Source: Catajapyx aquilonaris (lineage: Eukaryota). Taken from it: a stretch of DNA of 64,000 nucleotides. This document shows, piece by piece, positions 6,719-55,529 of the stretch. Each line of letters begins with the position of its first letter. Positions within the stretch are counted from its first letter, which is position 1. The DNA lies in assembly GCA_000934665.2 (NCBI GenBank), contig JYFJ02000049.1, positions 62,001-126,000 on the forward strand, in the 5' to 3' direction. The notes beneath the pieces are model-generated. The model saw nothing but the letters and a program-made list of their open reading frames with translations, had not been told where the DNA came from and did not search any database. The translations under genes were made by a program, and so were the position numbers.

Positions 6719-6812
6719 ACTCACTCAGATTTATGTGACACTTCTGACAACAAATTTGTGCGTCCTTTTCGCCAAACGCCTCACCTGCAAGGAAGAAAAA
6801 TTTACATTAATG
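6719..6812 (-). other. Candidate recursive splice site with 60-nt cryptic exon (6784-6725)
   Basis: Minus strand: CATTAAT (branch-like, A at 6807) GTAAA TTTTTCTTCCTT GCAG|GTGAGG, with AG at 6786-6785 and GT at 6784-6783. Second donor CTGA|GTGAGT at 6724-6719. Confidence 0.6.
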
Positions 6813-7049
6813 ACATATTCACAACACATGGCCGCATCAACAATGCTATTGTCCTACCCTATTTATACCATGTATAAATCAAGAGGGCAGGTGCAGGTTA
6901 CGGGACAGCGATGCCAGCTTAGCTCCTAATTGGTCTGGCACCTTTTCTACCCTCAGAAAATGCACGAACATTCTCACCTAACCCAAAAGAGGCCGAAGAC
7001 CCCTTCTGGGCCAGGGTACAAAAAAAAATTTAGTTGAAAAATTGCGCCC

Positions 7050-17448: not shown

Positions 17449-20400
17449 AGAGCTTTTAGAGCTTTTAGTCGGCTCTTTAATCTTGTAATGTAAATGCCCG
17501 TTATGACACAACTAATTTGCCTTTCGTCGTCGCAGTTACAGTTTGCTAATATTTTATGGCTCGAGACTCGAAAACGCGATTGTGAGCTTCGACACCAGAC
17601 GCGACGCCCGACCGTCACCAATATTATGGGAGTGGAAAAAGTGGCCTATATACGTATGTTTAGCAGTGATTCCGACAAAGTTCTATTATGGCATCTGTTA
17701 TGTCAAGCCAAAGTAAAACAACATAATAATAACAACGCCTTCATTTAAAATTAAGCATGCTACGAAGCGAGGAGGGAAGCATACCTGTCAGGATATTTTC
17801 CACTTGTGTTTGAACCGTATAATTCTGCCACTTGCACATAAAATGATATATCACTGCCCCTAAATTCACCCTAAAACAAAGTCGGTATTATTGCGACACA
17901 CAATGCCACGGCGAAGTGTGACCGTAACTCAAACGTACCACCTGCACATAACTCATTGCGCATATCGTACAACTTCCTCGTAAAACACCACGATAATAAA
18001 TAATCACAACCCATGTTGAATACACTAACAACACAAGATAAGGTTACAGGTTTCACTCCTTCCAGCAGAAGCAGGTTGGCAGTATTTCAGGATAAAGTTA
18101 TAGCGCTGCTGGCTCACCTGAATGTTACATAATATTCAGCCCGAGCTATTAGCCGCACAGTAGCTTAATCAGGGCAAGTAATTGGGGTCTGATAACTGGT
18201 TCCCGTGATAACACACGTGCTTTCGGAGCAGGCATTAATTTCCCCCTCGTAATCATTCTAAAAGGGAATCGGTTTTCTGAGCTGCCGCTTTCCCAGGTGG
18301 GGTCCTCCACCTTCAATTTTGGGAGGTGCGCCTTCATGACCGGAGGATGAGGATTGCAGCTCTTTTGATGGCGTCCGGCCAGAAATTAATTTCCTGGCCC
18401 GAGCGGACAGCCATCCGTTTGTATGTAGGCTGGTTGGGCAGCACCTTGACCCGACCGAGAGTCCCTTCCTAACGAGATGGACTATCGGTTAGGCCGAGAT
18501 AAAGCTGAGTTAGGCCAGCATAAATCAGGGGAAAGGCGCAGTAAGCCGTCTGGGATAACGAGCTTCTTGGTTTTGGGCTGCTGGTGCATGGGATAGGATA
18601 TCACTGGGGGTATATAGGTGTAAGTTCTTAGGAGGTGCATATATAGGGCTGTGTTGTATATGAGTGTGGGAGGCGATGCTGCCTCCTGGCTAAAAGGAGC
18701 AGATGGGCGCGATTGTTCAGACGCGTTTACAGTCACGGACGTGCGCCCTCCCTAAAAATTCAATTCCAACTCACGCCCCAAAAGCTGGCTCTTGCACGCC
18801 TCATTTCGAATTTATCATCCCCATCCGGGCGCATCTTAGATTTCAAGCGATGTGGCCAGCTCTGCTCAGAACCGGATGGCCCTTTCTCCCCTCAGGCATT
18901 ATTACATATCCCTGAATTTACTCCACTCGCAATTTGGCCAATTTATCTAAAATAGAGAAAATACTATGCGCAAATTATTTTCATCAATAATGCACACTCT
19001 TTAATCACATTATATTCAGAAACGATGTGCTCCAAGCAGTCTATAGGGGACGCCAACAAATTACGAGTATCGTTACCAGTATTATCCGAGATGGAGCAGA
19101 TCCTTTTGAGCGTAAGGAAGGGACTAAAAGGTTTCATAGGTCCGTAAGGGAAGGGGAGGAAGCTCAGATCTTATTATCCCCATTTCACCCTCTATTAGCT
19201 GTCGAGATGCTTCAGTGCCCGCCTAGTGCGTGCATTGGGAATGCGCTTCCAGGCCTCTCAATGATGTTCACTCCTTCAACAGAGCCTAAGCTAACTTGTC
19301 TGCCCAACAAGGGTGATATATGAAAGGAAACGCTCGAATAAATCTTGCCCGCTATCTGCCAGGCGAGGCGTGGGGGAAGCTTTATAATATGAATCGTAAA
19401 ATTATCATTTCAAGTTATTAAATCATAACTTACGATAAAAAGGAGGCAGCGAGAGGTGATGGGGGGAAAGAGGGGATGACGGGAGGACCTACTAGGCAAG
19501 ATACCAGGAGAAGAAGAAAAAATTGCTACTTGCCTGCCAGGAAGTGATTACATTTAATGGCAGGATGAGGAACTTTGGTCATTGGTTGAGAAGGACTTGC
19601 AAAAAAGGCCTCTGCTAGACGGCAATTTCATCACTGACTTAACTGATTAGATCGGAGCAGGCACAAGACCATGTTCAGACTAGCGTATAAGCACAAAAAG
19701 AAATAGGCTGCCGCATTAGTCATTTCATAAAGGAGGAACCGTGCCGACCTCCATCACTCTGTAATTAGCCCCCGTTATTACTGACTTCCCCTTTTCTCGA
19801 AAAAACGGCACTAACTCTTCTTTTGCCTAATGAGCACATTGTACGCAATCACGTCATATCATATCACTCCCAGGTGCTTTTCTTTAAACTGGTTACTGGA
19901 ATAAGCAACTCATTGTAGTGGGGGGAAAACCAGCTCAATTATTGCAACATGGCGGGTCTAACACCATTTTTCAAAAATATGACCTTCTACACACTCGGGT
20001 CTAGTTAAATTAGTTAAAACAGTGTGACTCATCCAGCGGTTAGAAAATTTGGTTTGTGGCCCCTGCTGGTGTTGCCTTCTCCCATCAAACAGACGCGTAG
20101 GGGCCAAGACACATTGCAGGACAAGCGTGAAAGACGAGCGCGCAAACACGTCTAATTGGCCATGAACGGGCTCGAAGGCAGACAAAACGCAACTCCCTAG
20201 TTTCATTCGAGCTATTAGCATCTTCGGGAGCAAATAAATTACTAGGGCGTGTCTCCCTTCCCGCCATTCTTCGTAGAAAGCAGACAAAGACAGATTTGGA
20301 CCGTGGGCTATATACCATCGAGAGAGTATTTATCCCCATTGCGTTTGGCGGACCTGTTGCGAGTCAGGAAAATCGGCGGAACCGGGTCTTGTGCCAGCCG

Positions 20401-35940: not shown

Positions 35941-36019
35941 CCTTACCTTGCTGACTCCACACATTTCCAAATATTGAACCGCAGCTTACCTGCAATATAG
36001 AGAGAGAAATCAGTTAGTG
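35941..36019 (-). other. Candidate recursive splice site (ratchet point) with 43-nt cryptic exon (35989-35947)
   Basis: Minus strand: CACTAAC (branch A at 36014, 24 nt upstream) TGA TTTCTCTCTCTATATT GCAG|GTAAGC, with AG at 35991-35990, GT at 35989-35988 and no intervening AG. Second donor CAAG|GTAAGG at 35946-35941. Confidence 0.7.
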
Positions 36020-36980
36020 AACAGTACACTCGGCTATGAGGATTAGTTACTCCCTCACTTTACCCCGTTCCCATGGAGACTCCAGCAAGAGTCTCATCAA
36101 AAGGACACGCGACTTATCACCATAACGGTTATCGGGGACGTGGAGATGGGGTGGGAGAAAACAGCATCCCGCTTAAAGGAGGACTTGGAAGCATAATTAC
36201 CGCAAGAATTAAGCGGAGGGCCAGAGGGTAATTTTCCAGACCCAGAGACGGATGGACCGCCATTAGGTGTCCATCCGGGCCTGATTTGCATGGGCTTTGT
36301 GCGCGATACCAATTTTAAGCGGGTGGAAACAATGGAGGGCTGGCATTAGGATGCTGGGCGTGTACAAAGCCGCTTTCTTCGCCGCCGCCAACTTAGCTGC
36401 TTTCTATTCAGACCTCATCTCCAGACCTTGTTTTCTACCCAGCGCCTCCTTTTTTTTAAGGAAGAAAATACACTTAACTATCGCCCTCACTTTTTTTTTT
36501 TAAACGGAGGCCATCAAATGTTTCCATGACCTATGGATCGGCTGCGCATTGAACAGTTCAGCGCTCAATGTTACACAATAATCGATCCGGGTTGTTTACA
36601 GCCCCTGGAGCCGGAAAATAGCAATAATTGTACGCTTGAAGCGATTAGAGCTCCCTTGTGCCTTTTGGTTGAAACCTGTGGGACAGCTTCAAAAGTACGC
36701 CTCAGTTACAATCAAACCAATATGACGTACAACAGGGGAGCTATTTGCAAGCCGGTCCTGGCATGCGAATAAATCTGGGGGAGCTCAATTGGAGCTGATA
36801 TGCAGCAATACCATTCCGGATTTCCCCTCCTCTTTGCCCTTGCTGCAATCGGAGAACAGCACCAAAATTATACGCTTCCCATCCCGTCATATCTCCTCAT
36901 CGCTCGTTTGGGTATATCGGACTGGGGAAAGGTGACGTCATTCCGGACTAATAGCCAAAAGTCTTGAGGTCCCCTCTATA

Positions 36981-41092: not shown

Positions 41093-44000
41093 ACTTTCAG
41101 AGCCGCAGCAACATTATCAAATTATTGAAGAATATACGACGCCCACTTTGTACATTTAATTCATCTTTCATCCCGCAATGTACTTTGATGCGCCCAACTT
41201 TTAACTATCTCCGAACTTAGCAGGTAAAAGCATGATAATATCTGGCTTGTGGGAGTGGCCTTCACATGCCTGCCACTATTAGCTAATCCTGTACATGTAA
41301 CCGCAATTTGACGCCCATCATAGTCCCCTGAGCCGTGATGGCTATATATGAGCTGAGGGCGTTGAGATCCCAGCGTGACCAGGGATAGTTTCCAGCGCAT
41401 TTTAGTCACGATGGTGTCGCGATGAGAGGTTGAGATATGCATGGTGTGTGGAGGAAGGGTAGATTAATCAGGCGAGAGTATAGGAGGAGGGTTGGTATGG
41501 CGCCCATCTATCCCTTTTGGGCTGCTGCTGGTGGTGCAACTAACCCCCCTCCCTCTCTCTGCTGTATCCGCTATCGAGTTTCATGCTGGAATGCACCTCA
41601 TAATTCAGGCCCAGGGGTTGACAGGCAGCGGCCTAATTACTGCTCATGCCGGATGTGTGGAAAATATTGCGCTCAAGCTGGGAGCAAAAGGCGCTGCGAT
41701 ATTGCAGCTCAAAGAGGGCGTAATTGAGTTTCATGGAGCTTATCGACGCCCGGCACAAAGGTGTGGAGCCATGATAAGCCCTGTGCTGGCGGAAGGATTC
41801 TTTATGCCCAGCCACGGCCGTCCTTCACCTTCGCACTCGCATGTCAAAAATACTTCCTTCCAACTAATTGGGCCTCCACCTTATGTGGGCCAGTCTCCCC
41901 AGGTTCCGGTCCGCATGTCTAGTGTGTGCCTTCCACTATCAATTCACAAATGCCTGTGCCGTAAAGCAGAGAAAATTGATAAGCGTGTGCTTTGGTGGCT
42001 TTAACAAACTCGACTTCGCAGAGTACCGAAAATTCTCGTTAGCGCTGCAGCAGGGCCATTATGGCAGGCACGCAACTACATCCACACCTCGGAATGGCGA
42101 ATGTTTCGCGTGCCTCTCCCCGATAAGCAATACCAACAAATATGAGGGCCCGCGGAATGAGTCATACACGTTAAGTTATGCCTCCGTGGGCTAGGCGGAC
42201 AGGTGCCAGAATGCCACTGCAAATAAATGTCCCCGCACGATTGAAGTCGTAAAGATGCCCGGTGCAGCTGTACCACTTTGTATGCAAAACTTGGTCAAAA
42301 GTTGGATTTAATCAGCGCGACCCCTGCTTCCATTATCGCTCTTAACACGCTTCTGCAGTACATCATCTTCCGCACGTTCTCACAACACAGGCCCCGTACA
42401 CCTTCCTCGGCATGCAATGTTTACTGATCCCTCTCGGTCGGAAGGAAGTATCGTTTTCCACGCTGCATGCAAAAGCATTGGCCTTGCAGTACATCATAAA
42501 AGTTCGGGAAACTGCCAATGCACAAATAACCAATTACATTACTCAACGGGTGCAGTGCAGCTTGGAATCGACCCAGAGATCCAATCTGTTCCAACAGTGG
42601 GGAAGTAGTTACAATGGGCCATGGAGCCCAAGAAAAGAATGGAAAAAAAGAGGAAGGGAGAGAATCGCCCAGTCCCTTTATTCGACTGTAGGGTTCTCGT
42701 CCCAGCAGCCAATTAAGATCCGGCCGATAAAGCTGGAATTACACGTCGGGAAGACCCACTTGACCATATCTATTATTCTTGTGTGCCGTTCAGTCACTTG
42801 CCGCCTGTTGCGTCACGGAAGGCTGACCCCTTGTTTCTTTCGTGACTGGGACCTCCTACTTCAGCATGTCACACGTGCTGCTTCACCCTGAAGGTTTCCC
42901 ACAGTATAGAAAATCACTTCTACCCCCTGGCCAGTCTACTGTCCCCCTCATTTATTCATTGGGCTGGAATAGACTGCATATAGCCAGTGACCAATAAATA
43001 CGAGCGTTTTTATTAACGAGATCAGCGTGGTTATTTGCTATATCAGCATAATCTGCTGCATATTCATGGCCACGAGCGAAAGAGGGAAAATATCAAAGCT
43101 CACAAACAAAAGAGCGATGGCAGAAACTGATTTAACGACGCTTAATTCTCCATCACACGGACAAGTAATTAATTCCTTCATCGAATGTTGACAAATGGCT
43201 AATCAAGTGCCATCCGACCGATTATGTTGGAACGGAGCCACGGGGAACCACTGCTGATGAACGACAATAGCCTGTACCGGGCATGATTCTCATTTGCGCA
43301 CTTGACCTGTCCGTCACGTATTACCCACACACAAAAAGATACCGCCTCCCAGTTTAAATCGCTGTGGAAATTACAGCATTGGCCTGACGATATGAAGACG
43401 AATGGTCAGCGATAGTCCCCCCCCCCCCACACACAATGCTGTGGTTTTGCTAACAAGCAACACTCTCCCCTTGCAAGCTGCATCCCGGCAGAGGGCAGAC
43501 TGTGGGCTTATCGCGGCATCAGCCCCGCGCAATTAACAGCTGGAATATGGCTGTTATGCAAAACAAGTGTTAATGAAGGCGGGAAGGGGGGAAAAGGGGA
43601 GAGAATGCCTGGGGCATAATGAGACCGTGTCTGAGGCTGGTTCATTTCCAGCAGGAGCTAATCACGTCTTTTACACCTAACGCTTTTCTTTTCTTATCAA
43701 AATGTCGTATTCAAGTGCAATCAGTCATATGAAGTGTCGATATGAGGTCCATCTGAGGGCAGGGTTTCTGGGAGGGGTTGGAGGGCTGAAGAGCCATCAG
43801 CTTGTTTGATGAGTTGCGGCTGCGGCGCCATTGCTGCAGACTCTTGCGGTCGGAAGTGGCGAGAATGGGAAGAGGGGGCGCCAATGTTTGCTCTTAGGAT
43901 GTCTCCCCAGATCCATCTTTTACTTTCGGAAAAGGGGAGCCAGCACCCACAGGATTTTCAGATGCCTATACAACCAACGGCTGCTATATAGTGGAAGACT

Positions 44001-45790
44001 CCCAATTAATGAGCTGTGTACTGGCCAGCAGGTCAAGTGCAGAGTTTGCTTCAATTTCACCCTTTCTGGTAAAGCAGTCGTGCAATCACATTTCGCTCCG
44101 TTCGTTTGGGTAAGGTCCTCTGGAGCCCAGTTAGTGTCGATACAGAACCCCGGTTGCTGCTGGAGGCATGTGCCTGCGGCCATCCAATTAGTAGGTTGGT
44201 GGTGTCCTCGGGTAAAGGGAGGATTTTCTTGGGGACGTTTCCTCCTCTTCCTCTTTCCGCCTAAATACCTGTAATTACTAGCTAGAAAGTTGGATTTGCC
44301 TCGGCAGGGGAAATTAGCCAAGAGATAAACTCCGTCTTGCGGGCTAATTTGAGTATTTACGCTCCCGTCCTCCTTAATTAAGACGCATGGGAGGCAAAAT
44401 TGTGATCCACGCGGCCCGTCATCATCGTCTTCCCTCCCACAACTTCTCTTTTGCACCAATCCTCCCTCCCCCATAAAAACGGACGCAAGCCAAGGAAACA
44501 GTTGCGTGGGAACTTGGCGGCGATGAATCAAGTTCGGAGTTAATGCTGCCTCGAGGGAAAATCCTCCCTCCCTTTTGCACTTATACACAACAACTAGGGG
44601 AGAAGTCTGGCCCAAGGTGTTTCCGAATAACACGTTCGTCTACTCTGGCGATCAGACCACAACAGAAGATTCCTCTGATGTCGTGTCAAGTGAAACGCTG
44701 CTTTGAAACATGAACAGGCTGCAGGCGAGAATAAGAGGCGGTGGACAGGAAGGAAGACAACATGGGGGGCAATAAATATGGGGTCACTTTTTCCCACATC
44801 TCACCTGATCACGCACCCAACATTCCACGGAAACGACACGGACTTTTCTCATGGCGGTTCCCCCCAACACAACTTGCCTTATCGGCGCAGCTTGGATTTT
44901 GTCTTCCGGACTATACCCCGGATTTATTGCTGCTTTCCGGGAAGGATTTAATGCCAGATCCAACGCGACCCTATACTTGGATTGTGCATTATTACAATAA
45001 TAATATGAATTCAGTACATTCGGAAAACTGTCCCAAGTACAGTACATGAAGGGACAGGTCGCAACTAATGGATTAGTAATTTTGAATGGCTCGCTTGTAA
45101 ATAGTGCAAACCGACCACAGTCCCGGCCACAATTCAATGACGCGCTCCCATTTAATTATTGCTAACAGGGCAGGCCGGCTCTAATAAAAGCTATCACGGC
45201 GCCGACACTCGTAATATCAATTGGAAAAACGGATTGACGTGATTGCTCCCCCTGGATGGAAAATGGATTCCGGGACCTGTGCCGCGCATGAATAGTCAAG
45301 GACCGGCCAGAAAACTGCCTATAATTGATCCTGGTCAGCAACAACAGAATCCTGGGGTGCAATTGGATCCGGGAATCCTCCAGGGGACCAGAATGCGGCC
45401 GCACAGCCAATTCCCCGAGCCCTTTCTACTCTTCCCTCTTCTCCTCCCGCTTCTTCATTACTAGGGTGGGGGGAAAGGGGAGAGAGAGAGACCCACTTCT
45501 TTTAATCAGCTCGCAATGTGACGCAGACAAATGGCGAAACTCGATTTTCACACCGTAATTCTCCCGAATTGAAGTGACGCAACGCGATAACAGCAGATTT
45601 GTGTAATACGAAACGGCCAGCCAGTGAAGGAAAAAGAAGCGATCGAAATTAAAAGCGAGCTCGAAGACTCTCGTCTCCCGCCAATCACCCCTTTCTTGAT
45701 GAAAAAAAGGGAACCCAAACCTTTTTTCTAATTATTTCCACTCCATTACTTTACTCCCCATCCAATTCGTAAATAACTTATACTCAATTT

Positions 45791-46165
45791 TTCGATATAT
45801 CGAACAATGTGATCGAGATATCGCATGATCGATATTCTAGTATCGATATATCGCATGAGCGATATTCTAGTATCGATATATCCCATGCTCGATATAGAAC
45901 TGTCTAATATTGTCGATATATCGAACGCTGTAATCGACTTATCGAGATAGTGTGATCGGTTTCGATATTCTAGTATCGATATATCCCCAATGTGATCAAT
46001 GTATCGAGATATCGCATGCTCGATATCGATCTAATATTGTCGATATATCGAACGCTGTAATCGACTTATCGAGATAGTGTGATCGGTATCGATATTTCTA
46101 ACATTGTCTATATATCGAACCCCGATACCGACGATATATCGAATGAACGATATTATCGATATATC
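45791..46165. repeat. Complex CGATA/ATCGAT-rich palindromic minisatellite
   Basis: 30-bp tandem unit (45821-45850, 45851-45880, partial third). Identical 58-bp block at 45903-45960 and 46030-46087 (127-bp offset). TCGATATATCGA palindromes at 45792, 45913 and 46040. Five TATCGATA copies. Confidence 0.95.
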
Positions 46166-52711: not shown

Positions 52712-55529
52712 GGCAGCAGACTCCTCTCACAATACATACGCTGCCTGGCTTGCTAGATTCGGATTAACTCTATACTCCGCATGTTGTGCTGCCAAATGTC
52801 CACAATGCAACAAATCCACTCTGCGAGACACCATGTGGAAACCTAAAAGGGTTTCCAGAGTATATATGCAGGGGAAAAGGCTGCACCTCCAGTGAAATAT
52901 TATAATTTTGTACTTGGTGCACCTTGCAGTATTGTCAATCGGATATTTTTAATGTGAAATGTTTTTCTGATTTATTCTGATTTATGTATTCCATGTGGAT
53001 GCATTGTGCACAAGGTGCAATGAATTCAAATTTTGCCATTAAGTGCCAAATGTAACCTGATCATACAGTAGCATACTAAACCAGTACATTCCCCTTCCCC
53101 ATTTTGATGTAAAATGTCCATATGCACTATATAGGTCTGTACTACATGTCGGACAAAACACGCACTTCATGCAGGGAGGGTTTGAAATGCTGGTTATGGT
53201 CTAGAAAATCAGGGGGGGACTAGCTTATGTTTAGCTGGGATGAAATTTCCGTTGCACGGCGTCGATTCCCTGGCACCCCTTTTCCCTTTCGCAGGTCAAA
53301 TAATGAAGTCCAAACAAAAGGGAAAGAGGAGGGAATATGGGGCCGCAAATTTACCCGCCGCGAGGGGGTGCCCAGCATATGCGGCCAACTCTGGGAGCTG
53401 CAGGTCCTGTTCCGACATCACTAGAAACACCGGCCAGGAAATGAAGTGTCGGTGATGACCATGATTTAAAAAAATATTTACTTCTTAGTAGGCCCTGTCA
53501 GCTTATTACTGCACTATGTTAATCTAACGTGATGCAGACGCCTATTGTTGCACCGAAGCTTACCATTGGCTTGTCCTGATGTACGGTATATATATTATTA
53601 TATTACCTGCCACCATGTTTGTTGCATGCAAAGCAAAATGTACTACAAGAAAGCCAATCGTTCGAAAAGCAACCCTCGACATGTTTCCCCTGCCAATAAA
53701 TCAATTAATTGATTACTTACGAGTTAGAAGAGCTTGCAATATAATGTTCCAAGTAAATGTTTCAGTTCACACGTTGGCGCTGAATATCTTGTGCCATTTT
53801 TTTGCAATTTTTGAAACCGTCTCTGCTCGCTTATATTGTCCACACAGTCTACATTGTACTATATTTCTACACTATAGTTGTACATTGAAATCCCAATTTT
53901 AAATGCCGCACCAAGGAGGGAGAACAAACAAGCCGGCGCCACACGGCACGATATTATAGCGCATAGTCCCCATATTGTTTAAATAACAGTTTATATCCTG
54001 GACGCATGCAGCAGCTGAGTGGCATATAAATACAATTTGCATAACACCGATGCTGCTGCTGCATTCATGCATAGTGCGACCATACCGTTTTAAAAAGCAA
54101 TGTCTCTCCGCCCGCACATGGCCAACTCGTAAACACATTATCAAAAACCTCAAAAGTGAACAGGTATAGGAATTAATCGATCGGATCCAGCATTAATGTC
54201 ATGTAGTCTCAATTAGTTTAACTGTTATGCCCCTGCGGGTTTCGCTTGTCAGGCTTCATAACATCCAGATTTGTCAGAATTAAACCCATTAAACAGTTAT
54301 GGTTTGGAAGCGACAATAATATTCCCAGCAAACCGGCGCCATAAAGATGGCATCTCCCATGTACTCGCAGCCACGCATATTTTCAGTTCCGCCGAGTTCA
54401 GCACTGCATGTCCAACTTGTTCACAGCAGGATTTTTTTTAACTCTTTTTTGGGGGGACATAATCCGACCAACCCCTGCTAAAAAACTCTTTCTCCCAGTC
54501 AACATGCTTTTTGGCTTGATTCCACGCCACGCGATGGCCAGAAAAGTCGGTGGACTGTGGAGGTTTTTGCTGCATTGTCCCCTTTTTGCAAGCGTGGTCA
54601 TGTGGCGGAACGAGAAGCACGCGCCGATTGCATTCCGCCGAATTATCCATCGCAGGTGACCGTCACTTTTCAACGCTCCATGGGACACTAGTAAAAAAAA
54701 ATACCTGAACGTTGGGAAGGAAACACTCCCTATAGCCTTGCTGGATGCTGCATTCCTACTGCTGCTGGAGCGGAAAACGGGCCCCAGAGACGTAAGATGG
54801 CTTTGATGGAGACTCGTGAAGACTGTACCCTACCTCCCTTCGCCTTCCCTCCCCTTGAGGCCTATCTCTGCAAATGCGCGCCGCTGACAGGATGATAAAG
54901 AAAAGCGTCTCCTCGTCGCTTCCGACGCCCTGCCCTCAGCCTTTGTCCCTCCCCAGAAGTGGTGTCGCGAGGTCGAATGCACTCCTCCATTGTCTTGTCA
55001 CACTCTGTACCTTATGTCGCCAAAGACAGAGTCCTTCTGGTTCGGATGATAAGGAAGAGGGGGAGAGTGTCACAACCATACGCGGACAAGGACAATAATG
55101 CATTTGGCAAAACCTGTGCAGATCCTATAAGGCTTAATACAGTGAACACACGGAAAAAAAATGGAATGGTCAGGAATGTGTCCCACAGGAGATATGCAAA
55201 AGAAGTGTCCACAACAATTTTGCCGATGGTACGTCCGAATGTCCCAGGAGGAAAGGCTAGGTCGGGAACAAAATATTGGCTGGCACGATTGAAAAGCGGT
55301 ATTTGAAGCACAAACACGACAGTGAGGTCTCGACCTCAAATGTGATTGAATAGGCGTATAATGAAAATGCGCTGCATCCCGGAGGCGGCAGTTGTTTGGG
55401 GAGGGGGGGAATACTGTATATGCAAATAGGGGCATGGTACCTTTAAACTATGACGTCAAAATAGTGTGATATATATGGTAAATTACAACGTCCTCTGTCG
55501 CATAACATGTGGCCATTATTAAATCCCAA

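Follow-up and report, generated by a model that had tools for sequence, protein, structure and literature searches.

The locus at positions 35941-36019 of the analysed stretch of DNA (64 kb, hereafter the window) raises the question of whether its minus strand carries a functional recursive splice site, or splice signals brought together by chance or serving an ordinary exon. The first-pass annotation had read this strand as CACTAAC-TGA-TTTCTCTCTCTATATT-GCAG/GTAAGC (the slash marks a splice junction), and the reading is exact to the base. The branch point claimed 24 nt upstream corresponds to the A of CTAAC at 36014, which precedes the G of the acceptor AG by 24 nt; the claimed AG-free pyrimidine tract is borne out by the absence of AG from the 37 nt ahead of the acceptor (36028-35992); and segment 35989-35947 closes with AAG/GTAAGG, the second donor described 43 nt on. 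The length of this segment (43 nt = 3 x 14 + 1) is no multiple of 3, in agreement with the frameshift that had been predicted upon its inclusion. Such an arrangement suggests a functional recursive splice site of the RS-exon type, located on the minus strand within a very long intron, and we put the chances of this reading at about even. The site is plausibly a predicted member of an already known class of elements. Its features are listed in Table 1.

Table 1. Splice-related features of the candidate recursive site and their positions in the window
Feature	Position	Strand	Remarks
Branch motif CACTAAC	36019-36013	minus	Candidate branch A 36014 = position -25
Overlapping branch motif CTGAT	36013-36009	minus	Candidate branch A 36010 = position -21
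Polypyrimidine tract TTTCTCTCTCTATATT	36009-35994	minus	TT at -6/-5 (T at 35995 and 35994)
AG-free zone 36028-35992 (37 nt), then acceptor CAG	35990..36028	minus	AG at 35991-35990
GTAAGC directly 3' of the acceptor	35989-35984	minus	Candidate regenerated (ratchet-point) donor once the upstream exon is joined at 35989
Candidate recursive (RS) exon, 43 nt	35947..35989	minus	TAA opens one frame; two frames open
GTAAGG, own donor of the 43-nt exon	35946-35941	minus	AAG/GTAAGG, 7/9 match
Weaker donor GAG/GTGCGT	11 nt beyond the second donor	minus	Sequence reading

The sequence CAG/GTAAGC matches the U1-complementary consensus 9-mer at 8 of 9 positions. GTAAGC and AAG/GTAAGG are of about equal strength, both containing GTAAG followed by a non-consensus base at +6. 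Pyrimidines occupy 14 of the 17 positions from -20 to -4, a level reached at 2.8% of window positions, although the tract is broken by two A residues. Both CTAAC (A at -25) and CTGAT (A at -21) precede an AG-free run to the acceptor and are candidate branch points by motif. A repeat scan of the window placed the site in no repeat, and RNA folding at the site revealed no unusual structure (z = +1.04).

The motif architecture and its statistical rarity are direct observations, and the combination of splice signals at 35990 is clearly non-random. To assess rarity, we defined a composite with four components: an AG/GT matching the U1-complementary 9-mer at 7 or more of 9 positions; 12 or more pyrimidines out of 17; a CTRAY that precedes an AG-free stretch; and, at a distance of 25-120 nt, a second donor with a match of 7/9 or better. 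This composite was found once in 128 kb (both strands of the 64-kb window), at the 35990 site, which also takes first rank by a simple score among the 386 AG/GT sites scored over both strands. The sequence CAGGTAAG has its single occurrence in the window, both strands together, at the same place. The component frequencies of the window predict 0.0034 composites on the plus and 0.0044 on the minus strand, and a product estimate for a version as strict as the one observed gives about 1e-5 per strand. A branch motif with an AG-free run is present at about 3% of window positions. Single elements are not rare: AGGTRAG is found twice on the plus and 10 times on the minus strand, the first-order Markov expectation being 7.1 +/- 2.8 per strand. 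A metagenome scan with a 27-mer from the site returned no matches, and a full-text literature search for the 14-mer ATTGCAGGTAAGCT returned no paper.

These signals may nevertheless be a chance motif or an unused pseudo-exon, either untranscribed on the minus strand or ignored by the spliceosome. Among order-2 Markov windows, both strands considered, 16 of 1500 (about 1%) contained at least one loose composite, and in 1 of 1500 a composite equalled the observed one in quality; since the thresholds were chosen after the site had been seen, such probabilities are somewhat optimistic and the true significance is somewhat lower than simulated. The initial scan, moreover, covered many windows, and ratchet-like motifs have a background of approximately 0.1 per 100 kb even on complementary strands and in intergenic DNA, according to the available part of Shepard et al. 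(2009). The window itself could be a gene desert, no coding sequence having been found in its 64 kb. Opposed to chance are the rarity of equally good composites in the simulation (1 of 1500 windows), the product estimate for the strict version, the occurrence of five independent signals together in the right order and spacing, and the location of the second-best site of the window (6785) on the same strand. An origin by chance, or a lack of use, is regarded as rather unlikely.

How the background compares with motif densities in different hosts is described in the accessible portion of the same study (Shepard et al., 2009). In the large introns of five invertebrates, the sense strand shows a 4- to 22-fold enrichment of ratchet motifs over this background, with densities per 100 kb of large introns of 2.2 in fly, 1.0 in mosquito, 0.8 in beetle, 0.5 in sea urchin and 0.5 in bee. 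For an invertebrate host, and with the minus strand as the sense strand of a large intron, the motif would be much likelier to be real than background. In this respect the locus would differ from vertebrate large introns, for which the study reports no sense-strand enrichment (sense/antisense ratio 0.9-1.5) and where the motif is almost without predictive value. Beyond flies and vertebrates, the case for recursive splicing has so far consisted of motif enrichment only, as far as that portion of the study goes.

The window has a GC content of 47% and an even composition and is almost repeat-free. Its CpG depletion is mild (observed/expected 0.78) and falls short of that of vertebrate DNA, which speaks against a vertebrate host. 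Its dinucleotide profile is unlike the one that we take to be typical of Drosophila. Pfam searches of all 319 stop-to-stop frames of at least 70 aa, and of the 150 frames that lie between 21 and 40 kb among the 491 with 45-69 aa, gave no match above the cut-off; sub-cut-off matches to DUF5575_N, DUF5522, PRRSV_Env, AMP-dom_DIP2-like, DUF3667 and Zn_ribbon_ISL3 were taken as noise. No period-3 signal above that of shuffles was detected in the window, the tRNA scan found none, and Rfam at gathering thresholds yielded no matches. With the Rfam limit relaxed to E up to 1, the one match, to Vax2os1 conserved region 2 (Vax2os1_2) on the plus strand (55134-55319; 18.5 bits versus a gathering threshold of 55; E 0.023), has an A-rich, patchy alignment and is probably due to chance. 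The 64 kb of unique DNA without detected coding sequence is as compatible with a gene desert as with a giant intron.

Two frames and one repeat in the window may be recorded separately. A 123-codon frame on the minus strand (19961-20329) produced the sub-threshold DUF5575_N match (E 4e-4; 20.8 bits versus a cut-off of 24.1); a homologue search for longer proteins containing this frame found none, and a full-text literature search for DUF5575 found no paper. A second minus-strand frame (43923-44639) runs for 239 codons without a stop and is longer than expected at random for this composition, about 0.03 frames of such length being expected per window by our own arithmetic; it has no Pfam match, and no homologue was found. 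The only repeat in the window is a tandem array at 45789-46159 with periods of 30 and 127 nt, dense in the words ATCGAT, TATCGATA and CGATA, where local CpG observed/expected climbs to about 1.0. We take this array to resemble clusters of DRE- or BEAF-type binding motifs. A metagenome scan with a 36-mer from the array, at about 46 kb, gave no matches.

Base composition was considered as a guide to the transcribed strand. In 4-kb bins over the 64 kb, the minus strand has an excess of G over C of 4.3% (z 7.5; 14 of 16 bins) and of T over A of 2.6% (z 4.7; 13 of 16 bins) across the window, and this consistent asymmetry suggests one transcription or replication regime over all 64 kb. The combination of G>C and T>A is the pattern of the sense strand of mammalian introns. 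The sense strand of Drosophila short introns, by contrast, combines T>A with C>G, as stated in the available text of PMC10946897, and the accessible part of a fungal study (PMC3315797) notes a C bias of invertebrate coding strands close to the start of genes. Under the Drosophila pattern, the GC skew of the window would therefore indicate the plus strand. As mammals and flies differ in the GC skew to be expected, composition was rejected as decisive for the transcribed strand. Two other asymmetries were also set aside: that of AATAAA poly(A) signals (38 versus 21 between the strands) largely reflects base composition, and the strand difference in pyrimidine tracts counted by regex (118 versus 65) was inflated by overlaps and is contradicted by non-overlapping acceptors, which are balanced between the strands (84 versus 82), as are donors (34 versus 44) and generic exon-like acceptor-donor pairs (13 versus 15).

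A second ratchet-like site is present on the minus strand (6725-6810). Its sequence is tttttcttccttgcag/GTGAGG; the acceptor G lies at 6785, TT occupies -5/-6, and the site has 13 of 17 pyrimidines, an AG-free run of at least 58 nt, and TGA/GTGAGT 60 nt downstream. Of the 386 AG/GT sites, only two pass a fly-like filter that requires TT at -5/-6, Y at -3 and GTRAG; they are those at 35990 and 6785, both on the minus strand and 29 kb apart. Alternatively, the 6785 site may serve as the donor of an exon-like interval of 221 nt (6785-7005). Juxtaposed acceptor-donor motifs in the window are more frequent on the minus than on the plus strand, with 10 versus 2 occurrences of AGGTRAG, 11 versus 4 of TTNYAGGT and 3 versus 0 of TTGCAGGT; this lean is weak, and most such sites are without a pyrimidine tract.

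The closest comparison is provided by the 197 ratchet points of Drosophila that were defined by junction reads, AG/GT, sawtooth density and lariats (Duff et al., 10.1101/006163). In that set, 196 of the 197 have TT at -5/-6, the pyrimidine tract is more prominent than that of ordinary acceptors, lariat-mapped branch points mostly lie at -36 to -21, and the host introns of 11-133 kb are removed in segments of 18 kb on average. According to the available part of Joseph et al. (2021, PMC8605326), each fly ratchet point also depends on a short (~50 nt) cryptic exon, as a rule out of frame, that has a donor of its own. The candidate site resembles these elements in the juxtaposition of acceptor and donor at AG/GT (TTGCAG/GTAAGC), in the TT at -5/-6 together with a strong pyrimidine tract, in branch motifs at -25 and -21, inside the -36 to -21 range, and in a cryptic exon that is short (43 nt versus ~50 nt), would shift the frame and is closed by a separate donor. 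Its setting may likewise be comparable: at least 64 kb without detectable coding sequence (fly introns >11 kb), and 29 kb between the candidate sites at 35990 and 6785 as against the 18-kb fly average. This likeness is one of DNA sequence, and at that level the earlier interpretation of the locus as a recursive site is upheld, the site showing every published feature of Drosophila ratchet points that can be read from DNA.

The same comparison was extended to supplementary table file 1 of Pai et al. (2018; PMC6110457), whose 539 gene identifiers were taken as ~539 rows of validated D. melanogaster sites. This table contains 128 instances of the octamer TTGCAGGT and 21 of the 12-mer TTGCAGGTAAGC, and the 12-mer core is, as judged from its sequence, a common form among validated fly sites. 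The 14-mer ATTGCAGGTAAGCT is found in two entries, both with flanks unlike those of the site, and the site itself is absent from the ~539 rows. Fly ratchet points are strongly conserved (10.1101/006163), and conservation is the strongest published discriminator (10.1101/006163; available part of PMC6110457). It concerns the acceptor/donor core, the exon body of fly sites being poorly conserved (10.1101/006163; accessible parts of PMC8605326 and PMC6110457).

A more specific proposal would be that fly-type ratchet points, one at 35990 with a cryptic RS-exon and a second 29 kb downstream at 6785, serve the stepwise removal of an intron of more than 64 kb in a non-dipteran invertebrate, a kind of host suggested by the mild CpG depletion, the 47% GC and the dinucleotide profile. 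This combination is tentative and, taken as a whole, somewhat doubtful.

Vertebrate RS-exons, which occur in long neuronal genes (Sibley et al., 2015, as cited in the review PMC5126111), are similar to the candidate in several respects described in the available text of that review: the YAG/GT consensus, exon recognition via a downstream donor, the contest between the regenerated and the downstream donor, and the break in frame that inclusion would cause. The candidate RS-exon has TAA in one of its three frames in addition to the frameshift. Like the Ubx microexons mI and mII (10.1101/006163) and the RS-exons protected by the exon junction complex (EJC) in the accessible part of PMC6224609, the exon opens with a functional-looking donor, GTAAG. 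The Ubx exons are 51 nt long, frame-preserving and ultraconserved, as reported in the available portion of PMC8605326, whereas the candidate has 43 nt and is frame-shifting. A good intronic acceptor-donor pair, absent from mRNA, is also a property of pseudo- or decoy exons in long introns (PMC7175933 and PMC7373989, in their available parts). As a rule, pseudo-exons have no consensus donor at their start, and it is the AG/GTAAG juxtaposition that distinguishes recursive sites. The classifier of PMC13105047, as presented in its accessible text, is human-specific and requires an upstream 5' splice site, so that it does not apply to this locus.

By analogy with the work on flies and vertebrates, transcription of the minus strand, use of the splice sites and the order of the steps may be envisaged as follows. 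The 43-nt segment would first be defined as a small exon, with U2AF and U2 bound to the pyrimidine tract, the CTAAC branch point and the acceptor TT-GCAG, and with U1 bound to AAG/GTAAGG 43 nt downstream. The upstream exon would then be joined to 35989, and the first part of the intron would leave as a lariat branched near 36014. The new junction, exon/GTAAGC, would constitute a fresh 5' splice site, and this regenerated donor and the exon's own donor would contest the next acceptor. Success of the regenerated donor would send the 43 nt out with the next lariat and leave no trace of them in the mRNA; success of the exon's donor would lead to inclusion of the frameshifting 43-nt exon. The exonic half of the regenerated donor is set by the upstream exon, which lies outside the window; the 28 kb upstream of the 35990 site contain no exon-like or ratchet-like sites, and this was counted against the recursive reading.

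The outcome of the contest is of particular interest at this locus. In flies, competition between the regenerated donor and the exon donor sets skipping or inclusion, and altering the ratchet donor in Bx and kuz forces exon inclusion, as described in the available part of PMC8605326. Unlike the tested fly cases, in which the regenerated donor usually wins, the candidate has two donors that look equally strong. With donors so nearly equal, skipping of the 43-nt exon is not assured under the donor-competition rule, as far as the rule is set out in the accessible text of Joseph et al. (2021, PMC8605326). The segment could thus be an expressed recursive exon, and its partial inclusion, with the resulting frameshift, is a real possibility.

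A related explanation is that the segment is an ordinary expressed 43-nt exon (5'-UTR, lncRNA or poison cassette), the GTAAGC at its start being coincidental or silenced, for example by the exon junction complex. The acceptor, branch motif and donor do make a perfectly good 43-nt exon, whose own donor AAG/GTAAGG equals the regenerated one in strength. Expressed exons with recursive features are known in flies, and hundreds of annotated human exons are kept in by the exon junction complex, according to the available parts of PMC8605326 and PMC6224609, respectively. Such an exon would, on the other hand, disrupt any reading frame with its 43 nt, and no coding neighbours were found in the window. 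The presence of GTAAG as the first five exon bases is expected by chance in about 1 exon in 1000 (our own arithmetic from the window base frequencies), and intronic ratchet points in flies (>500) far outnumber expressed recursive exons (<50) in the accessible text of PMC8605326. An ordinary exon is for these reasons considered unlikely, somewhat more so than an origin by chance. It is highly improbable that GTAAGC and GTAAGG, although both are strong, both follow AG, and AGGTRAG is commoner on the minus strand (10 versus 2 on the plus), represent a pair of alternative 5' splice sites, spaced by 43 nt, at the end of an upstream exon (e.g., a non-coding first exon), with AG/GTAAGC acting as a donor only and never as an acceptor, because the pyrimidine tract (14/17 or more at 2.8% of positions), CTAAC/CTGAT with an AG-free run (~3%) and the 37-nt AG-free zone would then all be coincidence, and no promoter-like CpG or GC feature is present upstream of the site.

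Flies and vertebrates already provide well-described cases of recursive splicing, and one more predicted site of the kind favoured here adds little unless the host belongs outside both groups. For annotation, the candidate provides a strand and a splice junction to seek in nascent RNA, and an unannotated cryptic exon. A single base change in GTAAGC is predicted to force inclusion of the 43-nt exon. Should the site be in use, it would identify a gene whose intron exceeds 64 kb and reveal how this intron comes out step by step, and inclusion of the 43-nt exon would then act, through the frameshift, as a built-in off-switch for the mRNA.
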